Origin: Candidatus Hadarchaeota archaeon
Lineage (GTDB): Archaea; CAYQAE01; CAYVLA01
Direction: 5' to 3'
NCBI GenBank assembly: GCA_964621445.1
Contig: CAZUNO010000003.1
Location: forward strand, 32,001-96,000
Length of the DNA stretch: 64,000 nt
Shown here: positions 37,861-38,745 of the stretch, piece after piece
Layout of the letters: the number at the start of each line of letters is the position of its first letter
Numbering within the stretch: position 1 is the stretch's first letter
Program-made: the position numbers and the translations under genes
The notes under the pieces: generated by a model
What the model was told of the DNA's origin: nothing
Seen by the model: only the letters and a program-made list of their open reading frames with translations
Database searches by the model: none

Positions 37861-38439
37861 TTGCTTAGCAGATACAGAGATACCATAAACGCCTTTTTCG
37901 AAAAGATCGCCGCACATTTCAAATTTCTTCCACCGAATGCAATAACCGTTTCCAGCCTCCTTTTCTCCTTCGTACCCGCCTATCTCTTCTATCTGGGAAT
38001 GGTCCAGATTGGCTCCATCCTTGTTCTTCTATCCGGAGGATTCGATGTCATGGATGGTGCAGTAGCCCGTTTGACCGACAGGGTAACGTTATTTGGGGGA
38101 TTCCTGGATTCCACATTCGATCGTATGGCGGACTTCATAATCCTGGGCGGAATAGCTTTATCGGGAATCGTGGGCTGGGAATTGGTATTATTCACCGCCT
38201 TCGGCTCTTTCATGGTCCCCTATTGCCGTGCCAGGGGCGAAGCGGCTGGATGTGATAAGATGGCGGTTGGAATTGCCGAAAGAGCGGAACGCCAATTGGT
38301 CCTGGTCGCCGGGGGGCTGATTCACCCGCTAGTTGAAGAGGTGAATATCCTCCAGATATCAGTGGCAATACTGGGCATCCTAGCGTGGATAACCGTTTTC
38401 CAGAGGATAATCGCGGCCAAGAGATGTCTAGAGAAATGA
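37861..38439 (+). CDS. CDP-alcohol phosphatidyltransferase (archaetidylinositol-phosphate synthase-like)
   Basis: PNAIT, DVMDGAVAR..., GGFLDSTFDR, YCRARGE, GIAERAER. Confidence 0.88.
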   Translation: MLSRYRDTINAFFEKIAAHFKFLPPNAITVSSLLFSFVPAYLFYLGMVQIGSILVLLSGGFDVMDGAVARLTDRVTLFGGFLDSTFDRMADFIILGGIALSGIVGWELVLFTAFGSFMVPYCRARGEAAGCDKMAVGIAERAERQLVLVAGGLIHPLVEEVNILQISVAILGILAWITVFQRIIAAKRCLEK

Positions 38440-38455
38440 GGAGGCGAGTTTAGAC

Positions 38456-38604
38456 GAACCGGCAGCGACTCTTGCTTCCCAAAGGGTCTCCCACTTCAGT
38501 ACAACAAGCGACGCTGGCCTGCTTAACTTCCGGGTTCGGATTTCTCCTTCCTTAAATCAGAAGTATGAGACCGGGTGTTGCCAGGCCGCTATGGCCGCCG
38601 GCTC
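38456..38604 (-). rRNA. rrf: 5S rRNA, stand-alone, containing a 24-nt insertion
   Basis: Minus strand GGCGGCCATAGCGGCCTGGCAACACCCGGTCTCAT-[24 nt]-TCCGAACCCGGAAGTTAAGCAGGCCAGCGT...GTACTG...GGGAGACC...GGGAA...TCGCTGCC. Helices I (GAGCCGGCGGC/GCUGCCGGUUC) and II (GGCCUG/CAGGCC) pair. Confidence 0.95.
38541..38564 (-). other. Predicted BHB intron in 5S rRNA loop C
   Basis: Insertion ACUUCUGAUUUAAGGAAGGAGAAA. Central helix UCUC/GAGA, 3-nt bulges AUA and AAU, inner helix CUUCU/GGAAG, outer helix CGG/CCG. Confidence 0.85.
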
Positions 38605-38638
38605 GGTGTCCCTCGCCCCTTCATCTATTTAAGCTAGC

Positions 38639-38646
38639 ATTAAAAA
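38639..38646 (-). promoter_or_regulatory. TATA box of the 5S rRNA gene
   Basis: TTTTTAAT on the minus strand, 19-26 nt upstream of the start of the precursor stem at 38620. Confidence 0.6.
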
Positions 38647-38745
38647 TGTAATTCCAATTCGCATAGATTCGGGGTTATTGATATATCAGTCCTTAGGAAA
38701 AATGAGTAAGACAGATAAATAGAGGTACAAATCACGCGAAACAAG

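Follow-up and report, generated by a model that had tools for sequence, protein, structure and literature searches.

Here, we analyzed a 64,000-nucleotide (nt) stretch of archaeal DNA (contig CAZUNO010000003.1; referred to as the window, in which positions are counted unless stated otherwise) containing a 5S rRNA gene on the minus strand whose loop C is interrupted by a 24-nt insert (38541-38564). Our analyses support, with a probability of about 0.8 and at the level of sequence comparison, that this insert is a spliced archaeal bulge-helix-bulge (BHB) intron in the single 5S rRNA gene of its genome, i.e. an intron of a known kind in a host RNA for which we found no previous description. This interpretation was first put forward in a preliminary description made from the sequence letters of the window, and every prediction following from it that could be tested on sequences held.

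Using cmscan, we identified a complete 5S rRNA gene of 146 nt at 38457-38602 on the minus strand (RF00001; 90.8 bits; E-value of 3.1e-18; model positions 1-120). In the cmscan alignment, loop C contains 26 nt compared to 2 nt in the RF00001 model, which corresponds to 24 extra bases and places the insert in loop C as proposed in the preliminary description; the minus strand also reads identically to the precursor sequence given there. The 146-nt gene is the sole RF00001 match in the draft genome to which the window belongs (G000; 3.2 Mb, 96% complete). Based on the alignment, a motif scan, and the cut register described below, the gene is predicted to consist of a 5' exon of 38 nt (38565-38602) comprising the 5' strands of helices I, II, and III and the first part of loop C, the 24-nt intron, and a 3' exon of 84 nt (38457-38540), all on the minus strand.

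In minimum-free-energy folds of the whole gene as well as of a local 56-nt segment, the exon bases UCUC (38567-38570) pair with GAGA at the 3' end of the insert (38543-38546) to give the central helix H. The same fold leaves AUA (38564-38566) as a 3-nt 5' bulge and closes a 5-bp inner hairpin (h'; 38547-38563) with a stem formed by 38559-38563 and 38547-38551, including one G-U pair, and a 7-nt loop at 38552-38558. A scan for the strict hBHBh' motif, in which we allowed G-U pairs and used the criteria that h' has at least 4 bp, the outer helix h at least 3 bp, and the intron a length of 12-60 nt, recovered a BHB in exactly the proposed register with 4/4 pairs in H, 5 bp in h', 3 bp in h, and a length of 24 nt. 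If each bulge is cut behind its second base, i.e. between 38565 and 38564 and between 38541 and 38540, exactly 24 nt (38564-38541) are taken out, and these predicted cuts fall at the bond before the third bulged base, matching the structure of ARMAN-2 EndA with RNA, for which cleavage before the "third bulged nucleotide" is described (PMC12397907). The predicted spliced product of 122 nt adopts a 5S rRNA fold in which helix III and loop C are normal. Moreover, the spacing between the conserved loop C flanks in this product equals that in 15 of 15 intron-less archaeal 5S rRNA genes matched by our regular expression (25 archaeal loci were tried, and 10 failed to match the expression), in agreement with the earlier claim that splicing would restore the consensus loop C. 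A reading of the insert as a K-turn was rejected by eye, as neither bulge is followed by tandem G-A pairs.

The insert is fixed among the sampled genomes of the window's small Hadarchaeota-labelled phylum. All five genomes (G000 to G004), four of which are at least 98% complete (rounded figures), have a single 5S rRNA gene (146-158 nt), which carries an insert at the same position, and no second 5S rRNA gene, and so the interrupted gene has no intron-free counterpart in this set. Public records with the 5S rRNA sequences of G001 to G003 are labelled Candidatus Hadarchaeota in two cases and "uncultured Thermococci archaeon" in one. In the 36 other archaeal genomes of our first sample, no 5S rRNA match was longer than 124 nt.

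The main rival explanation, which we consider unlikely, is that the insert is a retained expansion segment, i.e. an extra hairpin of loop C in mature 5S rRNA, as known from Halococcus and some Clostridia, whose 5S rRNAs are oversized. Oversized prokaryotic 5S rRNAs were surveyed by Stepanov and Fox in 2021 using RefSeq, nt, Rfam, and 5SrRNAdb, and the text of that survey does not mention metagenomes (PMC7812874). According to the same text, archaeal insertions were confined to Halobacteriales (positions 104.1-105) and loop C insertions to Clostridia, the expansion segments are paired internally without noticeable complementarity to the 5S rRNA core, and those with experimental support stay in the mature RNA, while excision could not be excluded without experiments (PMC7812874). 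The only archaeal expansion site in this survey is, therefore, different from the site of the insert described here, and the insert, which pairs with the conserved bases of loop C and helix III, also differs from the described segments in its complementarity to the core.

To place the insert in a broader context, we scanned 185,579 species genomes and metagenome contigs for 5S rRNA loop C flanks separated by 13-43 nt, and sorted the matches into lineages and types by reading the sequences. The species genomes gave nine matches, i.e. three relatives from the phylum, two Woesearchaeota metagenome-assembled genomes (MAGs), one Aenigmatarchaeota MAG, and three bacterial contigs in which loop C is directly duplicated. 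Among 28 matches in metagenome contigs, eight are close to the lineage of the window, four are Woesearchaeota-like, one is from another archaeon (L046), ten are bacterial-like 5S rRNAs with non-BHB inserts, three are duplications, and two are not 5S rRNA. In the order around one of the Woesearchaeota MAGs, 107 of 121 genomes had a 5S rRNA match, which was at least 130 nt long in 7 of those, and in a sample of the phylum Aenigmatarchaeota, 92 of 101 genomes had a match, which was at least 130 nt long in 11. The distribution of oversized 5S rRNA genes in the sampled groups is sporadic.

For the archaeal inserts at the loop C site (site A), we examined the one register that restores the 5S rRNA consensus. 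Among 17 distinct sequences, H had 4/4 pairs in 15 and 3/4 pairs in 2 (G004 and L046, both with an A opposite a G at the outer pair), and the inner helix h' had at least 4 bp in 16. Seven further Aenigmatarchaeota 5S rRNA genes had H 4/4, h' of 4-8 bp, and introns of 22-67 nt. The 5' bulge was 3 nt in all 24 site-A sequences. A retained hairpin does not account for this pattern, in which the 4-bp helix, the 3-nt 5' bulge, and the inner helix are conserved, and intron length ranges from 20 to 67 nt through variation of the distal part.

The preliminary description had pointed to covariation in related genomes as support for the BHB, and such covariation was observed. In an alignment of 24 rows (A2; 23 distinct sequences from three or more archaeal lineages), 98.9% of 272 cells were standard pairs compared to 79.5% in shuffles, none of 500 of which reached the observed value; when the pairing partner was slid, 38-58% of cells were paired. 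The covariation score was 0.585 vs 0.204. In the 23 distinct sequences, 97.8% of the cells of H were paired. At the exon-intron pair 9-80, UA was present 12 times, CG 10 times, and UG once, and all four junction-proximal pairs of h' changed on both sides. Because the switch at pair 9-80 occurs inside each of three groups (G004 vs the remainder of the phylum, L031 vs L039, and L084 vs other Aenigmatarchaeota), it does not reflect one inherited event. A helix between insert and core that covaries in this manner is not expected from an expansion segment of the described kind.

As a negative control, we applied the restoring register to 12 sequences from outside the archaea that matched the same pattern, comprising 5 loop C duplications and 7 bacterial-like loop C inserts, the latter of three types (L035, which contains N, L058, L062, and L066, which have the same insert as L053, and L052 and L056, which are not 5S rRNA, were left out). 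These sequences gave 0-2/4 pairs in H and no h', and thus do not have the BHB geometry of the archaeal inserts. The bacterial-like 5S rRNAs from metagenomes (L043, L044, L054, L057, and L061; L053, L058, L062, and L066; and L059) have loop C inserts of 21-39 nt that fall into three sequence types; these are possibly retained expansion segments of the kind described by Stepanov and Fox. The direct duplications of loop C (L033, L035, and L036 in bacterial MAG contigs; L041, L051, and L060 in metagenomes), one of which has NN at the joint, look like assembly artefacts.

BHB inserts were also found at four further sites in the helix III/loop C arm of DPANN 5S rRNAs. L073 to L076 have BHB inserts between the 3' strand of helix III and loop B, and L078 has one a single base upstream of this site, in each case with H 4/4 and in the register that restores the consensus. 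The insert in L090 lies two bases downstream of the loop C site, and that in L092 inside the conserved 3' motif of loop C; both match the strict hBHBh' motif with H 4/4 in a register that restores the consensus, and the native helix III serves as the outer helix in L092. L076 (G045:C6:11111-11357, plus strand; Woesearchaeales-like) contains two BHB inserts, one of 29 nt in loop C and another of 22 nt that follows the 3' strand of helix III, and canonical cutting of each restores the consensus. In total, BHB inserts account for 16 of the 18 oversized 5S rRNA genes in the two DPANN samples. We note that cmscan mis-aligned some of these inserts and placed that of L073 in helix IV/V. The recurrence of the same geometry at other positions, the covarying helix between exon and insert, and the invariant arrangement of a 4-bp helix and a 3-nt bulge are all left unexplained by a retained segment, and an intron is, therefore, the best supported reading of the insert.

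Consistent with this reading, G000 encodes two paralogues of the splicing endonuclease EndA as well as RtcB (609 bits). The first EndA (373 amino acids [aa]; G000:C2, L068:1468-2589, minus strand) is alpha'2-like with N-terminal and catalytic domains, and gives full-length matches to the two-unit enzymes 3p1y, 1r0v, and 2gjw. The second (507 aa; G000:C9:28248-29771, L069:520-2043, plus strand) is epsilon2-like and matches the ARMAN-2 epsilon2 EndA 4FZ2 (PMC12397907) with an E-value of 4.6e-74 over residues 125-507, preceded by an extra N-terminal stretch of ~120 aa. The gene for the epsilon2-like EndA is common to G000 to G003. In G004 and in DPANN genomes with 5S rRNA inserts (five searched), the epsilon2 query matched only frames of ~190-220 aa, with none in G041; based on the lack of full-length matches, we rejected an epsilon2 EndA as a general requirement for 5S rRNA inserts. 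ARAGORN flagged introns in 26 of 42 tRNA genes in G000. Seven of the flagged introns, on contigs C1, C8, C9, C25, and C34, would be 246-2214 nt long, and some flags are probably mis-calls.

Several observations weigh against a spliced intron. First, the motif in the window was initially called a canonical BHB; UCUC/GAGA, the AUA bulge, and the inner helix were confirmed, but the outer helix was not. The minimum-free-energy fold retains the native helix III, which is 100% paired in the comparison of related sequences and covaries, and leaves the 3' cut site in a 9-nt bulge (38534-38542). A 3-nt 3' bulge AAU (38540-38542) forms only if CGG (38571-38573) pairs with CCG (38537-38539), and this conformer costs 3.9 kcal/mol (-54.1 vs -58.0). 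The role of outer helix can be taken by either the native helix III or the alternative CGG/CCG. The latter has no covariation support, with pair 6-50 next to H being unpaired in 4 of 15 distinct sequences, and so the BHB is strictly canonical only in a suboptimal conformer and otherwise has a relaxed form. An epsilon2-type EndA as encoded in G000 would fit the conformer with the 9-nt bulge. Second, the local 56-nt fold shows no gain in stability over shuffled sequences (z-score of -0.46); accordingly, stability was not used as an argument, and the support is comparative and not thermodynamic. Third, the strict motif occurs 129 times in 128,000 start positions on both strands of the window. BHB-like pairing is, thus, common, and pairing alone is weak evidence; the expected chance of the strict motif at a fixed start and with a fixed length is ~2e-5. 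Fourth, the aligned sequences are related and not independent, and the comparison to shuffles, therefore, overstates the support. Fifth, no consensus-restoring BHB was found in two oversized DPANN 5S rRNA genes, L077 (G116) and L083 (G200). The insert in L083 is in the region of helix IV/loop D. Sixth, among 19 tRNA introns of up to 150 nt (the seven of 246-2214 nt were left out), the strict scan found hBHBh' near the ARAGORN boundaries in only 5. This low number probably reflects imprecise ARAGORN boundaries together with a strict filter, and all that the scan demonstrates is the existence of BHB tRNA introns in G000. Finally, we infer cleavage, ligation, the fate of the intron, and the identity of the acting EndA from sequence.

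Three further points are in favor of a retained segment. Loop C is described as hosting retained expansions in some bacteria and as being among the least obstructed sites of bacterial 5S rRNA (PMC7812874), the bacterial-like 5S rRNAs from metagenomes have loop C inserts in organisms in which EndA is not expected, and fixation in five of five phylum genomes would also be expected for a tolerated structural element. We still favor a spliced intron based on the core pairing, the geometry, and the recurrence described above.

In a second alternative, which we consider very unlikely, EndA would excise the insert and leave the exons unligated, giving a 5S rRNA in two pieces of 38 and 84 nt that are joined through helices I-III and resemble fragmented rRNAs from which intervening sequences have been lost. 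The evidence for the BHB applies equally here, the break would, according to the fold, be spanned by helices I, II, and III, and excision without ligation is raised as a possibility for rRNA insertions in PMC7812874. On the other hand, RtcB is encoded in the genome, and nothing in the sequence argues for a nick.

That the insert is a mis-assembly or that the gene is a decaying pseudogene with the true 5S rRNA gene missing from the bins is effectively refuted: although G000 is a draft of 89 contigs and duplications of the mis-assembly type turned up with the same search pattern (L033, L035, L036, L041, L051, and L060), contigs from a separate study carry the insert, relatives from other assemblies have homologous inserts that differ by compensatory changes, inspection of the minus strand shows that the insert does not repeat its flanks, the exons match the model over its full length with 90.8 bits, and the five genomes have no second 5S rRNA gene. 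Specifically, 14 DNA sequencing runs and no RNA run were listed as containing the region 38360-38700 wholly or partly, a listing that has no bearing on expression, and the contigs of the independent study, which is of a hypersaline lake, bridge the insert without gaps (X3 record 4, 38504-38673; X4 record 5, 38424-38608). Inside the insert, they have a single difference, 38556 A>G (plus strand), which is in the hairpin loop. These contigs also differ in the 5' exon at 38580 G>T (plus strand), which is the base present in G001 to G003. These data speak against the assembly artefact that had been named in the preliminary description as a possible refutation of the intron.

If the insert is a spliced intron, maturation could proceed as follows. 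The exon bases UCUC, which come from the final two base pairs of helix III and the two bases that open loop C, would pair in the primary transcript with GAGA at the end of the insert, giving a 4-bp central helix with a 3-nt bulge on each strand and an inner hairpin. EndA, either the alpha'2-like or the epsilon2-like paralogue, would cleave each bulge behind its second base. RtcB is the ligase for the BHB cleavage products of archaeal tRNA and rRNA precursors, and it would similarly join the 5S exons to a 122-nt 5S rRNA with a normal loop C; the 24-nt intron would be set free, probably in circular form. Given that all genomes of the phylum possess just an interrupted 5S rRNA gene, splicing would be obligatory for making ribosomes. 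Taking all sites together, we lean toward the broader interpretation that several archaeal lineages, i.e. the window's phylum, Woesearchaeales-like Nanobdellota, and Aenigmatarchaeota, have BHB mini-introns whose splicing is obligatory at no fewer than five positions of the helix III/loop C arm of 5S rRNA, that the loop C intron is fixed in the only 5S rRNA gene of the window's phylum, which makes EndA/RtcB splicing compulsory for 5S rRNA maturation and ribosome assembly there, and that such introns would be described here for the first time. Such introns may serve as a checkpoint that ties the supply of 5S rRNA to the tRNA-splicing machinery.

To our knowledge, 5S rRNA is the one universal rRNA without a reported intron, and the introns described here would be the first in the 5S rRNA of any organism. 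Exact-phrase and broader searches of mainly open literature and main texts gave no report of a 5S rRNA intron and, thus, no precedent for the one proposed in the preliminary description, with the limit that a prior report is possible given this coverage. If splicing occurs, the substrate range of archaeal EndA would extend to the third rRNA, and the maturation of 5S rRNA in whole lineages would depend on EndA and RtcB. The 146-nt RNA with its 24-nt intron would also be a natural substrate for comparing strict and relaxed EndA on a BHB that competes with a native helix. In terms of annotation, some DPANN genomes may seem to be without 5S rRNA or below threshold in Rfam because of inserts; several intron-bearing copies score just 28-39 bits against RF00001 (34-39 bits for L073 to L076 and 28.6 bits for L078). 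Oversized archaeal 5S rRNA matches should, therefore, be tested for a BHB whose register restores the consensus.

The 5S rRNA gene is solitary between two plus-strand open reading frames (ORFs) and unlinked to the rRNA operon 16S-tRNA-23S, which is on contig C17 (G000:C17:12023-16849). By eye only, an A/T-rich TATA-like box is present at 38626-38632 (minus strand), 24-30 nt upstream of the 5' end of the gene. A scan for bacterial promoters found nothing. The window has no tRNA gene. The 16S and 23S rRNA matches of G000 exceed the Rfam models by 37 and 46 nt, respectively, and no large insert is present in the first ~720 positions of the 16S alignment, which is the part examined.

Among known systems, the 5S rRNA inserts are most readily compared to archaeal BHB introns. 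Such introns are described for tRNA, pre-rRNA, and pre-mRNA, with the motif at the exon-intron boundaries consisting of a 4-bp helix between two 3-nt bulges (PMC5829648), and as of 2018, all known archaeal introns were described as BHB introns except for a few group II introns (PMC6125680). The 5S rRNA inserts share with the BHB introns of tRNA, 16S/23S rRNA, and cbf5 pre-mRNA the motif and the candidate enzymes EndA and RtcB, and like these they are sporadic, use several insertion sites, and can be present more than once per gene. They differ in having 5S rRNA as the host RNA, in being very small (20-67 nt) without an ORF, and in being fixed in the sole gene of the window's phylum; the copy in the window, with a 3-nt 3' bulge only in a suboptimal conformer, is closer to relaxed forms than to the canonical BHB. 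Similarly to 5S rRNA expansion segments (PMC7812874), the gene is oversized and the insert is helical and lies in loop C, which is a region of insertion in bacteria; in contrast to what is described for those segments, four bases of the insert in the window pair with the core of helix III and loop C, covary, and are in BHB register. In Candidate Phyla Radiation bacteria, one study reports no insertion of at least 100 bp in 645 5S rRNA genes (PMC11270868).

In rRNA maturation, EndA cleavage at a BHB followed by ligation is described (PMC10515664; PMC12918454), and the EndA-dependent circularization pathway is stated to act on 16S and 23S, "but not 5S rRNAs" (PMC12918454). As in the 16S/23S processing stems, a BHB would be the site of EndA during rRNA maturation; however, those BHBs arise from leader and trailer sequences and free the entire rRNA in the form of a circular intermediate, whereas the motif in 5S rRNA is internal and would remove a piece of the body. 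Finally, relaxed tRNA introns (HBh', hBH, and BHL) at non-standard positions are described for organisms with an EndA of broad specificity (PMC5829648; PMC12397907). Like the relaxed tRNA introns cut by epsilon2 or (alpha-beta)2 EndA, the insert in the window has a disrupted 3' bulge in its minimum-free-energy fold, and G000 and its family encode an epsilon2-like EndA; it differs from these in that the predicted substrate is not a tRNA and in that epsilon2 is no general requirement for 5S rRNA inserts.

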